From Candidatus Bathyarchaeia archaeon (GTDB lineage: Archaea > Thermoproteota > Bathyarchaeia > Bathyarchaeales > Bathycorpusculaceae): a stretch of 55,206 nt of DNA. The DNA lies in the NCBI GenBank assembly GCA_037481775.1, contig JBBFKZ010000011.1:1-55206 (forward strand), written 5' to 3'. Position numbers and translations under genes: made by a program. Positions 5,875-52,639 of the stretch are shown piece by piece. A model generated the notes under the pieces. It had not been told where the DNA came from. It was given only the letters and a program-made list of their open reading frames with translations, and did not search any database. Numbering within the stretch: position 1 is the first letter of the stretch; each line of letters starts with the position of its first letter.

Positions 5875-5950
5875 AGCCCGGTGGTGTAGTGGCCAAGCAT
5901 AGCGGGCTTTGGACCCGCCGACGAGAGTTCGAATCTCTCCCGGGCTACCA
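5875..5950 (+). tRNA. tRNA-Gln (anticodon TTG)
   Basis: Acceptor stem AGCCCGG/CCGGGCT, anticodon arm GCGGG-CTTTGGA-CCCGC, T arm GAGAG-TTCGAAT-CTCTC, encoded CCA. Confidence 0.96.
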
Positions 5951-5966
5951 TTGCTTAGGCATGACT

Positions 5967-6140
5967 TTATACTTTTTGAGGGGCGTTTTCTCGGATTTCT
6001 TTGAGCATCTGCTGTCGTAGGGCGGTGGTCAGTTGGGTTAGTTGTTGATTTTCCAGTTGGTTGTTGTCAATGATTGTGCGGTTGGGTCTTGTGAGGGCGT
6101 CTTTTGTTAGGATTTCTTCTGGTTTTAGTCACCATGCGCG
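5967..6140 (-). pseudogene. C-terminal fragment of a probable tRNA-targeting tyrosine integrase
   Basis: Reads RAW*LKPEEILTKDALTRPNRTIIDNNQLENQQLTQLTTALRQQMLKEIRENAPQKV*, with an in-frame TGA at 6129-6131 and no start codon. It ends 16 nt from the tRNA. Resemblance to archaeal integrase C-terminal tails is from recall and was not searched. Confidence 0.5.
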
Positions 6141-6395
6141 GTTTATGAAAACCTTTTTCTGCCACATGCCATTCGGAAGAAAACAAGCCTACGTAAAAGC
6201 AGTAATTGAAGCCAGCCTCGAAAGACTTGCACATTTAAATCAAGGTTTGCGGGTTCTTAATGCAAAAGTTTACCTGTTTTGGACTCGAATCATCCCCCAA
6301 ACTAATACACAGTAAAACAAACTTAATTTCCAGTACTTCTTTTAGTGTCTCTTAACAGAACTGGAAAAAAGGAACTCGCAGAGTCTCCTAAAAAA

Positions 6396-6507
6396 GAGTT
6401 CAAACTCCATCCCCCGCGCTAAATAGTATAATGAACGGTTAGCAGGTCTGAATTCTCGATTTTTGAGCTCTATAATAAGTTCAAATATCCTTAAAAATAT
6501 CGAAGTT
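6396..6507 (+). repeat. Left arm of mini-cassette 1: degenerate tRNA-Leu 3' end plus arm motif
   Basis: 6396-6420 matches tRNA-Leu 50698-50722 at 19/25; GTCTGAATTCTCGA (6446-6459) matches GTTTAAATTCTCGG at 11/14; GTTCAAATAT (6479-6488) is identical to 50798-50807. Confidence 0.7.
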
Positions 6508-7081
6508 AAGAAACCATTCGAACTCCTACTTTGAACGCCTTTTCCATCAATTTTTTGTTGTTTTCTACACTGCCTAACTTATTATCGTCGTGAGCGTATA
6601 GGATTGTTTCAAACAGTTCGATGTTCGCCCAGTTGAAAAATCCCTTAATTGTAGTTTGAATTGTGTTAAACTCTTGATCTGCGCCTGCCACGGCGATGAA
6701 AACTCCCTTCTTACTTTTTTGTATTCTTCTTTCAAATCCAAATGTTCCATCAAGTCGTTCGACATAAGGCATTAAACAATTGCAACGATCCATCATAAGT
6801 TTTGTTTGCGCACTAACGGTGTCAAAATATACAGGTGAACCAAGCACTATTGCATCACAAGACTGCAGTGCGTTATACACTTTCTTCATATCGTCATCAA
6901 ATAGACAATACTTCGGATAAGGGTCGACTCCACAACTCTGGCACGGTTTAGTGTGGAGATCATTAAGATAGATTTTATATGTTTTTGCTCCTTGGCGATT
7001 CGCACCCTTCAACACTTCGGAAACGAGCAAGTCTACATTTCCATTTTTCTTTGGGCTACCAATAATCCCGCTTACTTTCAT
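6506..7081 (-). CDS. Flavodoxin-fold iron-sulfur flavoprotein (Isf / NADPH-dependent FMN reductase family)
   Basis: IIGSPKKNGN, PCQSC......YC...DDM, IVLGSPVYF..VSAQTKLMMDR. Confidence 0.9.
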   Translation of the reverse strand: MKVSGIIGSPKKNGNVDLLVSEVLKGANRQGAKTYKIYLNDLHTKPCQSCGVDPYPKYCLFDDDMKKVYNALQSCDAIVLGSPVYFDTVSAQTKLMMDRCNCLMPYVERLDGTFGFERRIQKSKKGVFIAVAGADQEFNTIQTTIKGFFNWANIELFETILYAHDDNKLGSVENNKKLMEKAFKVGVRMVS

Positions 7082-7169
7082 AACGTTACTCCATGCATTT
7101 AGATGTAGAGTTTTAAAATGTGCAGAAACTTATATTTTTCTGATTAAATATTGCAGAAGGGCAGGCTCC

Positions 7170-7356
7170 TATAAACGTTGCCGCGAAATGCAACTATTTT
7201 CTCGGCCAGAAAGTATAGAAATCTTGTTTGGAGCTTGTCAAATCATGGAAAACAGATGAATAAAGTCACTTATAGCATAAAATTCCGAGAATTTAAACCG
7301 ATGTCTAAACATAGCCTCCCGCACCTTTCAAGAAAACCGCTACACTTTTTGAGCTT
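7170..7356 (+). repeat. Right arm of mini-cassette 1, homologous to 51403-51605
   Basis: Exact 20-mer ATTCCGAGAATTTAAACCGA at 7282-7301 and 51534-51553; collinear TATAAAC..GAAATG, TCGGCCA..AAAGTA..ATCTTGT and GCACCT blocks. Confidence 0.8.
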
Positions 7357-7484
7357 CTTTCGCTTCCATACGATCATTCCTAAGGCATAGAACCCCCTCT
7401 TCCTAAACAAACTAAAACAAAAAAAGAAGGAAGATGACGGTTTAACCCGAGGCTGAAAAGTATAAATTCTTGCCTAGGCACCCG

Positions 7485-7501
7485 TCTTTCCCGGGCTACC
7501 A
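7485..7501 (+). repeat. attR-like direct repeat of the tRNA-Gln 3' end
   Basis: TCTTTCCCGGGCTACCA vs TCTCTCCCGGGCTACCA (5934-5950). Confidence 0.8.
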
Positions 7502-50635: not shown

Positions 50636-50723
50636 GCGGGGGTTGCCAAGCATGGCCAAAGGCGTAGGACTGAGGCTCCTATCCCATAGGGGTTCGTGGG
50701 TTCAAATCCCACCCCCCGCACCA
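50636..50723 (+). tRNA. tRNA-Leu (anticodon GAG)
   Basis: Acceptor stem GCGGGGG/CCCCCGC, anticodon arm TAGGA-CTGAGGC-TCCTA, long variable arm, GTGGG-TTCAAAT-CCCAC, encoded CCA. Confidence 0.96.
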
Positions 50724-51605
50724 AACTACACAAGTTACGTTTAAATTCTCGGCTTTCTAGTCTAAGTTACCGGTATTAGTTTTGTAGCTCAGTTTAGGTT
50801 CAAATATGGGTCTAAAACGTCGGGTTTTTTTAAAAATGGAAGATTATAAAAAGGTTATGGTTTCAGCAGCGATTAGAGATTTGTTTGACTGAAAGCGAAG
50901 TATGCTATCGGAGTTACTCGAACAGCTTGTAGGTTATGGATAGGCTAACGCCAGCTAAGATTGGAAGGATAACAGTGGACAGAATTGCATCTACTCTTAA
51001 AAATGCGGCGGCGGCAATCGCAGCACCCCAGATAAGAGCATTTCCTAATGCGACTTCATACTTGTTTTTCTGTAATAAAGCCAACTTGTTATATGTTGTT
51101 GTTCTGAGTAAGAGGCTGTAAGCATCTTTCCCTATTGGGGTGAGGCTGTATTTTCCGTTCTCTTGTTTTATAAAAGGGGCCAGACTTCGGAGATGATAGG
51201 AAAGAGTTGGGCTATCAGGTATTTTGCTTGCACTCAGAATCTCAGTGAAAGTAGTTGCCTTCTTTTCACCAACGTATCTGAGGATATCTCTTCTCTTCTG
51301 ATGGTCCAGTGCTTTAAAGACCTCTTGCTCAAGACTCTCAAATTCTTGATCTTCTTTTTCTCCCATGTACTCCACCTAAAATCAGTATAAATCAGAGTCG
51401 ATTATAAACACCTACGTGAAATGAATTTTAGTAAAAGAGATTTTACTTCGGCCAAAAGTACACGTTTTTATCTTGTGCGAGACGCATCGGTAATAATCGC
51501 ATAGAAAGGCTAGGACCATAATTAGGAGGAAAGATTCCGAGAATTTAAACCGAGATTTAAACCTAATTACCTGCACCTACACTGAACCCGCCAAAGCTGA
51601 GCTTT
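50698..51605. mobile_element. Putative non-autonomous mini-cassette 2 at the tRNA-Leu 3' end
   Basis: Perfect 14-bp inverted repeat GTTTAAATTCTCGG (50739-50752) / CCGAGAATTTAAAC (51537-51550) around one gene; both arms are homologous to those flanking the flavodoxin gene. Confidence 0.65.
50914..51366 (-). CDS. ArsR-like winged-helix protein with two C-terminal TM helices
   Basis: VFKALDHQKRRDIL, SPTLSYHL..L, Y.LT..GK.A; hydrophobic hairpin; start ATG 51366 or GTG 51375. Confidence 0.85.
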   Translation of the reverse strand: MGEKEDQEFESLEQEVFKALDHQKRRDILRYVGEKKATTFTEILSASKIPDSPTLSYHLRSLAPFIKQENGKYSLTPIGKDAYSLLLRTTTYNKLALLQKNKYEVALGNALIWGAAIAAAAFLRVDAILSTVILPILAGVSLSITYKLFE

Positions 51606-51738
51606 ACAATTTTGTCCGTTTGTGTCCGATTAGAACGATATGTTTCTATACTATAGGAAATATGGAAGACTTTTACATATGGATTTATATATTTGAATAA
51701 ATTTAATTTTTGGAATCAAATGGAAAGGTGAGAAGGCA

Positions 51739-52557
51739 ATGTCGATGAGGTGCCCTATAATAGCTTTCTGTTTATTGTGCCTTTCAGCTTTAATAATTAT
51801 GCCAGTTATGGGCTACCCGTTAACGCTGGTTGCATACTGGAGCTGCGACGAAACAGGCGGAAACGTCTTGCCTGATTTAACTGGCGGTAACGACGGAACC
51901 ATCTATGGAGCAGCACTTGCTACTGGAAAAATCAGCAATGCGCTCGCTTTTAACGGCGACGATGTCGTTAATGTTGCTGACGCAACAGAACTCAAACCTG
52001 CCCATTTCACAATAGAAGCTTGGATATTTATAAACGAGACTAGCGGCTTAGCTGATATAGTTGCAAAGCATCAATACGGTCCAGATGCGGGCTATGAATT
52101 GCGTCTTTATAATGGGCTCTTGCAGTTTGTAATGGCCGGTTCATCTGGTTGGCAGGTGCTTTCTGCGTCATCATTGTCTCTTAATACTTGGCATCATGTT
52201 GTAGCCACCTATGATGGGAGCCAGATGGTTATTTATGTGAATGGCATTAAACAAGCTTTTATGGCTGCTTCTAGTGTATCTCACTCGGATAGTAAATTGC
52301 AAATTGGTGGTCATGATTCTTGGACTGGTTTCGAGCGGTGCTTTCATGGTTACATTGATGAGGTTGCAATATACAGCGAAGCGCTACCCGCAGATGTCAT
52401 ACTGAGCCATTACTTGCTTGGCGGGGAAGGACACGACTATTTCTTTGCGGTGCCCGAGTATCCCATAGGAAGCTTGGCAGCTATAATTGTTTTCTTCTCT
52501 GCGTTCATGTTGCACTTGCGGCGTACAAAACGCACGAGTTTGCACTTAGTTAACTGA
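51739..52557 (+). CDS. LamG/concanavalin-like surface protein with a PEF-CTERM-like tail
   Basis: FTIEAWI, WHHVVATYDG....YVNG, LQIGG, F.G.IDEVAIY..AL; VPEYP + TM + basic residues. Confidence 0.9.
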   Translation: MSMRCPIIAFCLLCLSALIIMPVMGYPLTLVAYWSCDETGGNVLPDLTGGNDGTIYGAALATGKISNALAFNGDDVVNVADATELKPAHFTIEAWIFINETSGLADIVAKHQYGPDAGYELRLYNGLLQFVMAGSSGWQVLSASSLSLNTWHHVVATYDGSQMVIYVNGIKQAFMAASSVSHSDSKLQIGGHDSWTGFERCFHGYIDEVAIYSEALPADVILSHYLLGGEGHDYFFAVPEYPIGSLAAIIVFFSAFMLHLRRTKRTSLHLVN

Positions 52558-52639
52558 AGAGGAAGCTGAAAGAACAATAACCCCTTTTTTCCGCTGGTTT
52601 TTTATTCTCACGCTGCGCATTTATTATTGTGAGTTTGAA

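Follow-up and report, generated by a model that had tools for sequence, protein, structure and literature searches.

CIMEs are att-flanked, integrase-less islets of bacterial ICE/IME systems, and pdif modules carry small cargo between inversely oriented recombination sites on which a host enzyme acts. Integron cassettes, as presented in the main text of the archaeal integron study, are small units of mostly one to three genes with diverse accessory cargo and a conserved end site, and neither Bathyarchaea nor tRNA is mentioned in that main text (10.1101/2022.02.06.479319). According to part of the report on them, Prochlorococcus tycheposons gather cargo at few tRNA genes, where they leave partial tRNA repeats, insert in tandem and build up islands; the 937 screened elements carry an integrase, many of them together with replication modules and up to 10 kb or more of cargo (10.1101/2020.12.28.424599). 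Family 2 casposons of Methanosarcina, in excerpts of the paper describing them, use the 3' part of tRNA-Leu and show terminal inverted repeats, tandem arrays and solo ends (PMC4779613). Archaeal tyrosine-integrase elements that target tRNA genes are multigene and bring their own integrase (PMC8371274, PMC6563490, both seen in part), and the words cassette, non-autonomous and satellite do not occur in the main text of the review among these two sources (PMC8371274).

We analysed a 55,206-nt stretch of a Candidatus Bathyarchaeia archaeon contig (JBBFKZ010000011.1; the window), in which two small loci, B behind a tRNA-Leu(GAG) gene (50712-51577) and A close to a tRNA-Gln gene (6396-7325), on balance probably belong to a family of small cassettes without a recombinase. 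With integron cassettes they share their small size, diverse cargo and conserved end site, and with integrons and CALINs the stacking of arrays at one entry site, often with no integrase nearby. Unlike integrons, they enter at a tRNA 3' end and not at an attI beside intI, there is no IntI, and a copy of the tRNA end forms part of the site; exchange lies at a core (GCAC) rather than at a GTTRRRY box in three of four recurring cassettes, cargo orientation is mixed, and the left arm is often missing. Whereas attC is an imperfect palindrome (RYYYAAC...GTTRRRY), the site here has the two halves of a 14-bp inverted repeat set 42 nt apart. Like CIMEs, the units are att-bounded, lack genes for recombination or transfer and stand in tandem with integrase elements (L028, L131, L054 and window locus A); unlike CIMEs, their arms differ from those of the neighbouring integrase elements although the core is common, and they are much smaller, far more numerous and diverse, archaeal, and built on three alternative tRNA cores with matching arms. 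Units of about 1 kb with no integrase set them apart from tycheposons, and the lack of a target-site duplication logic and of any Cas1 or PolB link sets them apart from casposons. They use the same targets and core repeats as the archaeal tyrosine-integrase elements. In contrast to pdif modules, the sites are keyed to tRNA ends, and no Xer site resembling dif is evident. No description of these cassettes was found in the literature searched; related elements may be listed in the supplements to the casposon, tycheposon and archaeal integron papers.

Bathyarchaeia rank among the most abundant sediment archaea, and to our knowledge little has been reported on how they exchange genes. The cassettes point to an undescribed route for trading single genes among them, and provide a concrete, sequence-defined exchange vehicle with a searchable 45-bp signature and hundreds of cassettes. 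Their cargo spans redox enzymes, transporters, methyltransferases, regulators and many proteins without known function, and the signature would allow flexible genes to be catalogued straight from metagenomes. They also raise a biochemical question, namely which enzyme recognises the arm-core site. Because the sites are short and the target is the universal tRNA end, the system might serve as a site-specific insertion tool for uncultured or intractable archaea.

Two loci in the window

The features of both loci are collected in Table 1. The right arm of each spans about 45 bp and comprises CCGAGAATTTAAAC, a 16-nt T-loop-like spacer and a copy of the tRNA-Leu 3' end. As the original prediction had it, the loci share this arm: an exact 20-mer occurs at 7282 and 51534 and nowhere else in the 1.82-Mb genome. 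The perfect 14-bp inverted repeat of CCGAGAATTTAAAC around cargo B (51537-51550 against 50739-50752) and the tandem reiteration CCGAGAATTTAAAC-CGAGATTTAAAC at locus B were likewise recovered. The echo of the tRNA end beyond the arm reads CCTCCCGCAC at 7315 (9/10 positions against CCCCCCGCAC) and TTACCTGCAC at 51567 (6/10); we consider it real because the echo position reads CCCCCCGCAC in a 16-copy alignment from relatives, whose right-arm consensus is AAAATTCCGAGAATTTAAACCGAGRTYTAAACCTAA. With a profile built from these 16 copies, the genome gave two matches at E ~6e-14 each (7276-7330 and 51528-51584), a weak one at 50739-50752 and no others.

Direct comparison of locus A with locus B by blastn gave 14 matches, three of them above chance: a 48-bp right-arm block (79% identity, E 2.6e-7), the 14-bp inverted copy (E 0.02) and a 26-bp tRNA-like stretch (E 0.07). 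Since the remaining 11 matches have E >= 0.84, the shared exact GTTCAAATAT (6479 and 50798) and the several collinear blocks, which had been offered as further arm evidence, stand at chance level. From genome counts, blastn and the profile together, chance was rejected as the origin of the right arm, of the 14-mer inverted around cargo B and of the echoed core, and arm similarity lies far above chance by the latter two methods. At three or fewer mismatches, occurrences of the 14-mer in this genome are noise (168 matches against 207 for the reversed control). The left arm as a general feature of sequence downstream of tRNA genes was also rejected: its exact 14-mer lies behind tRNA-Leu(GAG) only, one of the 36 tRNA genes in the genome.

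Table 1. Positions of the features of loci A and B in the window
Feature	Position	Strand	Basis or detail
tRNA-Gln(TTG)	5875..5950	+	ARAGORN, Rfam
Insertion at tRNA-Gln, 1551 bp	5951..7501	.	13-bp direct repeat at bounds
Tyrosine integrase C-terminus remnant	5991..6146	-	tblastn, 65% identity to residues 391-442 of the G000:C27:7816-9171 integrase
Left core of cassette A: degenerate tRNA-Leu-like 3' fragment	6396..6419	+	T-arm and acceptor strand, ...CCCCCGCGC
Left arm of cassette A, degenerate	6446..6459	+	GTCTGAATTCTCGA, 11/14 positions matched
Cargo of cassette A: 191-aa FMN reductase-type flavoprotein	6506..7081	-	Pfam FMN_red, E 7.5e-21
Right arm of cassette A	7282..7325	+	20-mer, inverted repeat 7285-7298, spacer 7299-7314, then core CCTCCCGCACC
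tRNA-Leu(GAG)	50636..50723	+	ARAGORN, Rfam
Left core (attL side) of cassette B	50712-50721		tRNA-Leu(GAG) 3' acceptor strand CCCCCCGCAC
Left spacer of cassette B, core to left arm	50722..50738	+	17 nt, CAAACTACACAAGTTAC
Left arm (L) of cassette B	50739..50752	+	GTTTAAATTCTCGG, perfect inverted copy of the right-arm 14-mer
Cargo of cassette B: 153-aa winged-helix protein, hydrophobic C-terminus	50914..51375	-	ORF call, Pfam
Right arm (R) of cassette B	51534..51566	+	20-mer including CCGAGAATTTAAAC (51537-51550), then 16-nt spacer CGAGATTTAAACCTAA
Right core of cassette B, decayed	51567..51577	+	TTACCTGCACC, 6/10 against CCCCCCGCAC

A tRNA-Leu 3' end had been proposed at both loci; this holds for locus B, where tRNA-Leu(GAG) is a real gene, whereas locus A has the degenerate fragment, called as a tRNA gene by neither ARAGORN nor Rfam. 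The cargo protein of cassette B matches DUF7347 in Pfam (E 9.9e-12) and, weakly, ArsR/HTH_20, and further copies are found in L072 (broken), L192 and L201. Homology to these copies stops at the right core; the left spacer is similar in L072 and different in L201, and the right spacer CGAGATTTAAACCTAA resembles the T-loop and T-stem of a tRNA. Upstream of tRNA-Leu(GAG) the window holds MetX and MetW, with no IntI-type integrase beside the entry site. Among same-genus genomes, the distance from this tRNA to the next conserved gene is 0.57 kb (G005), 0.8 kb (G001), 1.9 kb (this genome) and 17 kb (G004).

Locus A sits within the tRNA-Gln insertion that bears the integrase remnant. The final 13 nt of tRNA-Gln, TCCCGGGCTACCA (5938-5950), are repeated at 7489-7501, and an 11-bp inverted repeat, TTTATACTTTT (from 5966) and AAAAGTATAAA (from 7456), lies 15 and 21 nt off the cores. 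Within the genus, G001 has an empty tRNA-Gln site, G005 has a Gln-type FMN-reductase cassette there, and this genome has the 1551-bp insertion; the G005 homologue of the cassette A cargo shares 75% amino-acid identity and lies at the same tRNA-Gln locus on the opposite strand. No right arm was found within the 3.5 kb examined around the FMN-reductase homologues in G011:C45 and G029:C32. Of the empty sites and circles looked for, the tRNA-Gln site was thus found empty, while neither a precise empty site for cassette B, where G005 and G001 hold a different 570-bp segment, nor a circle was seen. Neither cargo gene encodes an integrase by Pfam. Both copies in this genome look immobilised or decayed, because the right core of B is decayed, as are the left arm and left core of A, which lies within an older integrase-bearing insertion.

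Distribution, cargo and recurrence of the cassettes

The cassette family is widespread but patchy in Bathyarchaeia. A 28-letter right-arm pattern has 42 exact matches on 41 genome contigs, 37 of them titled Bathyarchae- and the other four Nitrososphaerota, Nitrososphaeria, Methylarchaceae and Terraquivivens, and it occurs on at least 120 metagenome contigs. In a sample of 401 genomes of the class, a 17-mer (at most one mismatch) was present in 42, against about 7 matches for the reversed control, with up to 10 copies per genome; it was found in none of the 40 genomes of genus g17 and in none of the three same-genus relatives of this genome in the sample. The loci collected contain 214 non-redundant right arms. 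The core of the original proposal, that small cassettes without an integrase share conserved arms, vary in their cargo and are tied to tRNA 3' ends, is supported and stood up to the refuting tests set out with it.

The 66 right arms of the genome loci divide into 38 with a Leu core, 8 with a Ser core, 1 with a Gln core and 19 with a degenerate core, and 72 of the 97 right arms in 80 metagenome loci have a Leu core; a tRNA core lies at a fixed 16 nt beyond the arm in 110 of these 163 arms. The type of core goes together with the right-arm subtype and with the adjacent tRNA, and L152 shows a further core variant, TGCCGGACCGGCA. Left arms follow tRNA-Leu, tRNA-Gln or tRNA-Ser ends or fragments at 23 sites in the genome loci and 25 in the metagenome loci. 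Inverted arm pairs beside tRNA ends around unrelated cargo, a layout the original prediction expected to recur, form 19 complete left-to-right units in the genome loci (583-3068 bp) and 12 in the metagenome loci (618-6127 bp), and unit size in relatives is 0.6-6 kb with a median of about 1.2 kb. Behind tRNA-Leu, many units form tandem arrays; variants occur at tRNA-Ser and tRNA-Gln, and the junction between tandem cassettes reads right arm-core-spacer-left arm. Recognisable left arms are far fewer than right arms, and some cassettes lie directly 3' of the tRNA without one.

Clustering of the 158 ORFs adjoining right arms gave 111 clusters, and blastp against 12 integrases showed no resemblance for any of these ORFs. 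A Pfam scan of 50 ORFs in or beside arrays returned flavoproteins, methyltransferases, GNAT proteins, an M29 peptidase, a P-type ATPase, transporters and wHTH regulators; many had no Pfam match, and the sole integrase among them belongs to a separate 10-kb element. Cargo orientation is mixed, and in several cassettes the first ORF begins 7-70 nt past the left arm.

The same cassettes recur in unrelated contexts. Cassette B is 91% identical to its copy in L072, the flanks of which share only 66-71% identity with this genome, and 90-97% identical to those in L201 and L192, which lie at tRNA-Leu(CAG) with flanks at 66-69%. Copies of an M29 cassette (94-95% identical, at tRNA-Leu(CAG) and tRNA-Leu(TAG)), a TrmB cassette (93%) and a FIST cassette (85-89%, inverted in L025) all have unrelated flanks. 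In these last three cassettes, homology begins right after the left GCAC(N) and stops at the right GCAC(N), and the right core is unlike the local tRNA core, which argues against target-site duplication. The right cores of the three cassette B lineages all differ (TTACCTGCAC, TCCCACGCAC, TTTCCCGGCGCC), as does the left spacer of L201, so exchange between these copies took place inside the arms or beside them rather than at the core. Recombination within arms, and not at the core alone, thus probably accounts for some of the cargo swapping.

In four metagenome runs (contigs; three studies), bins at att sites were 10-100 times deeper than neighbouring bins, and the cargo side of the right arm adjoined 13-17 different sequences. 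Joints between att sites in those runs were rejected as evidence of excision or circles, the sides matching over only 21-36 nt at 90% likeness, and were read as other cassettes with the same arms; bins without coverage were disregarded. No sequencing run matched as much as half of the words sought, and habitat labels of runs with small shares were left aside. None of the 80 metagenome loci lies on a circular-looking contig and the arm had no match among the viral contigs scanned; a virus or plasmid carrier was rejected on these two counts.

Proposed mobilisation and competing explanations

Neither an integrase nor a fragment of one was detected inside 42 bounded intervals (30 left-to-right or right-to-right intervals in genome loci and 12 metagenome units) by tblastn with 9 integrases of this genome. 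With the same queries, integrase pieces occurred in only 5 of the 80 metagenome loci, none within a bounded cassette. Nor did any autonomous element with these arms turn up. Where integrase elements occupy the same tRNA-Leu core, they carry other arms (TAACAGTTAC repeats), and those at tRNA-Gln have the same layout of core, spacer and inverted repeat with different arms; group-2 integrases (G000:C27, L077) were rejected as the cognate enzyme, being tRNA-Gln specific and associated with other arms. Integrase elements in this genome lie at tRNA-Leu(CAG), tRNA-Gln, tRNA-Arg and others, and one integrase gene begins inside the T-arm of tRNA-Leu(CAG). Integrase-bearing elements stand in tandem with cassettes at the four loci named above, and arrays abut integrase fragments in L054, L090, L131 and L028. 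G378, a 98% complete genome with five exact right arms, has no match to PF00589, PF16795 or PF00239, and the PF00589 match of G413 is an 85-aa fragment only; these two genomes break a strict link between arms and integrase. Cas1 is present in G000, G048 and G378, falls below the cut-off in G413 and has no match in G011.

We consider it somewhat more probable than its competitors combined that these are non-autonomous, att-bounded cassettes that insert site-specifically at tRNA 3' ends through a recombinase supplied from elsewhere, with additional shuffling within the arms. An integrated cassette has, in order, a target core (...CCCCCCGCAC, the end of a tRNA-Leu gene or an earlier copy of it), then, after a 16-26-nt spacer, the left arm GTTTAAATTCTCGG, cargo of one to a few genes in either orientation, the right arm CCGAGAATTTAAAC, the 16-nt T-loop-like spacer and a second core, and sister sub-families combine matching arm variants with a core from the 3' end of tRNA-Ser or tRNA-Gln. 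The free cassette would present a single site of about 70 bp (right arm-core-left arm), which a site-specific enzyme, most likely a tyrosine recombinase, would join to a tRNA 3' end or to the core of a resident cassette. Such an enzyme may be encoded by a co-resident or transient integrative element, or be provided in cis by a tandem helper element; arrays would grow by repeated insertion, and the arms may double as short homology handles for cargo exchange or inversion. The sequences themselves show the architecture, distribution, cargo diversity, lack of a recombinase and recurrence in unrelated contexts; the recombinase that acts on the units, the circular form and any present-day activity are inferred. 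A bolder and rather doubtful version is a native archaeal gene-capture system akin to integrons, with entry at tRNA 3' ends, a 45-70-bp arm-core(-arm) site, a recombinase outside recognised families, and BRE/TATA-like arms that would recruit TBP and TFB as architectural partners and serve as promoters of captured genes. An enzyme of no recognised family is suggested because near-complete cassette-bearing genomes occur without tyrosine, SSV-type or serine recombinases.

The arms could instead be the ends of once-autonomous elements at tRNA genes and the units their deletion remnants, no longer capable of site-specific recombination, their spread and cargo swapping being due to homologous recombination between arms after DNA uptake or to vertical descent. 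This account, to which we assign a minor chance, would fit the position of locus A inside an insertion with an integrase remnant, the integrase fragments that adjoin arrays in four loci, the exchange within arms implied by the differing right cores and left spacer of the cassette B copies, the inverted FIST cassette of L025, and the cassette-rich genomes lacking recombinases (G378, and G413 with its short fragment). It is harder to reconcile with bounded intervals and adjoining ORFs that hold no integrase (0 of 42 and 0 of 158), with the failure to find an autonomous element bearing these arms, with arms that hardly vary between 111 unrelated clusters of cargo or between families at ~66-71% genome identity, and with the co-variation of core type, right-arm subtype and neighbouring tRNA. 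A non-autonomous transposon with terminal inverted repeats and target-site duplication, casposon-derived or MITE-like and moved at tRNA-Leu by a Cas1-type or DDE-type enzyme, is disfavoured and in our judgement very improbable. The inverted terminal 14-mers and the short direct repeat of the target would suit it, as would the preference of family 2 casposons for the 3' part of tRNA-Leu genes and their tandem arrays, reported in excerpts of PMC4779613. Against it, the arms are set 16 nt off the repeat and not flush with it, only the right one of the two spacers is conserved, recently shared cassettes such as the M29 copies have a right core unlike the local tRNA core, and Cas1 was not found in G011 and is sub-threshold in G413.

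The 14-mer might also be a BRE/TATA-type promoter or another protein-binding signal, conserved for transcription rather than recombination and carried along with genes inserted beside tRNA genes, so that the units would be portable regulatory modules; we hold this to be improbable, less so than the transposon. Its CCGAGAA-TTTAAA stretch resembles the BRE and TATA box of archaeal promoters, a rough RAAG-TTTAAAT lies 30-45 nt upstream of the tRNA genes of this genome as their promoter, and the first ORF of several cassettes starts shortly past the left arm. A regulatory module leaves unexplained the tRNA 3' core at its fixed 16 nt in 110/163 right arms, the Ser and Gln variants and the arrays behind tRNA genes, and it sits poorly with cargo in both orientations and with an exact left-arm 14-mer behind only 1/36 tRNA genes here. 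Regulatory and recombination roles of the arms are not mutually exclusive.

Two arm-bearing loci in the window

The 20-mer common to loci A and B is real: the 1.82-Mb assembly has two exact copies and no more, and both lie inside the window. ARAGORN and Rfam called two tRNA genes in the window, tRNA-Gln(TTG) and tRNA-Leu(GAG), and the parts of the two loci follow in identical order. The original prediction had described one architecture at both, namely a tRNA-Leu 3' end, a left arm (inverted 14-mer), a minus-strand gene and a right arm (14-mer-bearing block plus T-loop-like spacer); the order stands, but the tRNA-Leu end and left arm of locus A are degenerate. Cassette B, at 784 bp, is of typical size among the complete units of relatives.

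Positions of tRNA genes, cassette parts and the enclosing insertion in the window
Feature	Position	Strand	Description	Source
tRNA-Gln(TTG)	5875-5950			ARAGORN, Rfam
Insertion at tRNA-Gln(TTG)	5951-7501		1551 bp, containing locus A	
Locus A tRNA-Leu-like 3' fragment	6396-6419		degenerate	
Locus A left arm	6446-6459		degenerate, 11/14 positions	
Locus A cargo	6506-7081	minus	FMN-reductase gene	ORF call, Pfam
Locus A copy of common 20-mer	7282			
Locus A core	7315		CCTCCCGCACC	
tRNA-Leu(GAG)	50636-50723			ARAGORN, Rfam
Locus B left spacer			17 nt, directly 3' of tRNA-Leu(GAG)	
Locus B left arm	50739-50752		GTTTAAATTCTCGG	
Locus B cargo	50914-51375	minus	153-aa DUF7347 winged-helix protein	ORF call, Pfam
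Locus B right arm	51534-51566		ATTCCGAGAATTTAAACCGAGATTTAAACCTAA	
Locus B decayed core			TTACCTGCACC, directly after right arm	

Comparison of locus A with locus B by blastn yielded three signals above chance: the 48-bp right-arm block (E 2.6e-7), the 14-mer, which is indeed inverted around the locus B cargo (E 0.02), and a tRNA-like stretch (E 0.07). The other 11 matches have E values of at least 0.84 and are chance, including GTTCAAATAT and the other short blocks that the original prediction had counted as shared. A right-arm profile made from 16 copies matched only the two right arms in this genome (E ~6e-14) and, weakly, the left arm of locus B, and a scan of the genome for the 14-mer with three mismatches permitted returned nothing but noise. 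Apart from two chance details, the observation is real.

Past locus B (51578-52577) lies a 272-aa ORF (51739-52557) with hydrophobic N- and C-termini. The ORF and its surroundings are absent at the three same-genus loci examined (genomes G001, G005 and G004), and an unrelated 570-bp segment takes their place in G001 and G005; the region is therefore part of the variable region behind tRNA-Leu(GAG).

A patchily distributed family of tRNA-linked units

A search of 40 relatives with both loci gave many short matches to the 48-bp block, grouped near tRNA-Leu genes. An exact 28-letter pattern matched 42 times on 41 contigs of a species-level genome collection, 37 of them titled Bathyarchae- and four labelled Nitrososphaerota-, Nitrososphaeria-, Methylarchaceae- or Terraquivivens-type; it recurred in at least 120 metagenome contigs and in none of the viral contigs scanned. 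Across an even sample of 401 genomes of the class, a 17-mer with at most one mismatch was present in 42 genomes (reversed sequence as control, ~7 matches), with up to 10 copies in a single genome. Its distribution is patchy: 20 of 103 genomes of the own family carry it, as do none of 40 in genus g17 and none of the three others of the own genus.

The aligned right arms read AAAATTCCGAGAATTTAAACC-GAGRTYTAAACCTAA-CCCCCCGCAC and end in the tRNA-Leu 3' acceptor strand (10 nt); the 13 nt before it look like T-loop plus T-stem (GGTTCAAATCCCA). The short "echo" of the tRNA end noted beyond the cargo is thus a decayed form of a conserved core. Further copies were looked for and found: 66 non-redundant right arms in genome loci, followed by a Leu core in 38, by TTCCCGGCGCCA, the 3' end of tRNA-Ser(TGA), in eight, by a tRNA-Gln end in one and by a degenerate core in 19, and 97 in 80 metagenome loci (72 Leu, 4 Gln, 2 Ser, 19 degenerate). 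Among the 37 other 14-mer copies in genome loci, 23 are left arms lying 8-20 nt past a tRNA 3' end or fragment (15 Leu, 5 Gln, 3 Ser), and the metagenome loci hold 25 left arms. Right arms vary in sequence together with the core that follows: TTCCGAG... precedes Leu, TCGCCGAG...GATGTAAACCTA precedes Ser and CCGATAWTTTAAACCGATATKTGAAC precedes Gln. Locus L152 (2704-2792) adds another core type, TGCCGGACCGGCA, which stands between a CCGATATTTTAAAC-type right arm and a standard left arm.

Inverted arm pairs beside tRNA ends around variable cargo, as had been proposed, form 19 complete units in genome loci (583-3068 bp inside the arms) and 12 in metagenome loci (618-6127 bp). Tandem cassettes meet in a ~70-bp junction of right arm, core, spacer and left arm (e.g., L044, L066, L068, L071, L076), and arrays start at tRNA-Leu(GAG), tRNA-Leu(TAG) or tRNA-Leu(CAG) genes or at tRNA fragments with a T-arm. 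Fragments of this kind remain after integrase elements with long att repeats, among them a 10-kb element in G004 and elements whose integrase gene starts at GTG within the T-arm. Many tRNA genes of this genome have a RAAG-TTTAAAT-like box, a presumed BRE/TATA element, 30-45 nt upstream, and the cassette arm is similar to it.

Cargo lies on either strand among units. A Pfam scan of 50 ORFs inside or beside arrays left many without a match and otherwise returned FMN reductases, flavodoxin, SAM methyltransferases, GNAT, an M29 peptidase, an amidohydrolase, a P-type ATPase, transporters (MFS, ArsP, SBF), regulators (TrmB, MarR, ArsR-like), SRPBCC, DUF362, FIST and NHL/fn3 surface proteins; the sole integrase sits in the separate G004 element. 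The 158 ORFs (at least 120 aa) adjacent to 214 non-redundant right arms fall into 111 clusters, the biggest being SAM methyltransferases with seven members, and none resembles any of 12 integrases compared.

Movement, exchange and the search for a recombinase

L072 (6267-7067) matches cassette B at 91% identity, with flanks at only 66-71%, and copies in L201 and L192 match it at 90-97%; the latter two lie behind tRNA-Leu(CAG) in a different neighbourhood (flanks 66-69%). An M29-peptidase cassette, 94-95% identical between copies, lies at tRNA-Leu(CAG) in L047 and at tRNA-Leu(TAG) in G011; G013 and L071 share a TrmB cassette at 93% identity, and three genomes carry a FIST cassette at 85-89% identity, inverted in one of them. 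Flanks align in no pair of these three cassettes, and homology runs from directly after the left GCAC(N) to the right GCAC(N). Each copy has an identical base after its left and right GCAC, and its right core departs from the local tRNA core in the upstream portion. Together these features fit exchange by a site-specific recombinase across a short overlap and are not as target-site duplication predicts. G378 and G013, of one genus, have att sites in common and no cassette in common, and in four metagenome runs, drawn from three studies, att-site bins are 10-100x deeper than neighbouring bins, with 13-17 different sequences beside the right arm per run. Within the genus of this genome, tRNA-Leu(GAG) is followed by the next conserved gene after 0.57 kb (G005), 0.8 kb (G001), 1.9 kb (this genome) or 17 kb (G004); at tRNA-Gln, G001 has an empty site and G005 an FMN-reductase cassette whose Gln-type right arm is decayed (32/42 positions against L103). 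For cassette B, the same-genus loci examined showed no precise empty site.

Alternatively, the arms could be scars of autonomous elements, and cassettes could have spread by homologous exchange between them. Its chief support comes from cassette B itself: the right cores of three lineages differ (TTACCTGCAC, TCCCACGCAC, TTTCCCGGCGCC), as does the left spacer in L201, which points to exchange in or beside the arms for this cassette. We read this as homologous exchange via conserved arms working alongside site-specific insertion. A comparison of integrase elements and cassette-bearing genomes found no recombinase tied to the arms. Where integrase elements use this tRNA-Leu core, their arms are TAACAGTTAC, and tRNA-Gln integrases at G000:C27 (a contig of this genome) and L077 have a like core-spacer-inverted-repeat layout, but TTTRTACT arms. 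In G378, which is 98% complete and carries five exact right arms, nothing matched PF00589, PF16795 or PF00239 (tyrosine, SSV-type and serine recombinases), and in near-complete G413 (seven exact right arms) these families give only an 85-aa fragment. Cas1 was not found in G011, and no circular cassette form was seen in viral contigs or the 80 metagenome loci.

At family level, comparative evidence supports the interpretation of these loci as non-autonomous tRNA-linked cassettes, which a putative recombinase encoded elsewhere may move in trans; the two found in this genome are probably relics. The nearest analogues are integron cassettes, att-bounded integrase-less CIMEs, tycheposons and casposons at tRNA-Leu, for each of which some defining features fail here. 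The openly accessible literature searched contained no description of such cassettes and no paper with the 14-mer. Judged by title and opening of the abstract, none of the papers found there that join Bathyarchaeota, integrase, tRNA and mobile elements concerns them; in the Bathyarchaeia virus paper, the terms integrase, tRNA, attachment site and provirus lead only to provirus-related passages. The main text of an archaeal tyrosine-recombinase review (PMC8371274) uses neither "cassette", "non-autonomous" nor "satellite", and that of an archaeal integron paper (10.1101/2022.02.06.479319) mentions neither Bathyarchaea nor tRNA.

Neighbouring integrase elements

The insertion enclosing locus A is flanked by a direct repeat, 13 bp of the tRNA end. 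Its core-spacer-inverted-repeat layout is that of the cassettes, with other arms: an 11-bp inverted repeat (TTTATACTTTT / AAAAGTATAAA) set 15 and 21 nt away from the cores. Decay of integrase-bearing islands, the other origin considered for the arms, applies to locus A in part, through a 52-codon remnant of an integrase C-terminus within the insertion, but the locus's own arms are of Leu-cassette type, so locus A is a cassette nested in or beside an older element. The arm of the insertion also occurs behind tRNA-Gln(CTG) on G000:C23 and beside an intact integrase on G000:C27, and thus one tRNA-Gln integrase element may be split across both contigs. Elsewhere on G000:C23 (17824-17901, 3' flank), GTTAAATTCGCG stands 13 nt past tRNA-Ala(GGC); it may be a decayed left arm hinting at a further target tRNA.

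At G000:C10:33825-34812 and L131 (1-1030), an integrase open frame starts at GTG inside the tRNA-Leu(CAG) T-arm, and a 29-bp tRNA 3' fragment (G000:C10:29547-29575), ~5 kb from the integrase gene, looks like the other end of this element. Bases past several right cores (CTAYAYTGAACC..., ...CCTACTGCAG) are similar to the start of the G000:C10 tRNA-Leu-type integrase gene (L201 2180-2230; L054 5650-5895; window 51577-51600), a similarity suggesting that cassettes and tRNA-Leu-type integrase elements may have repeatedly inserted side by side.
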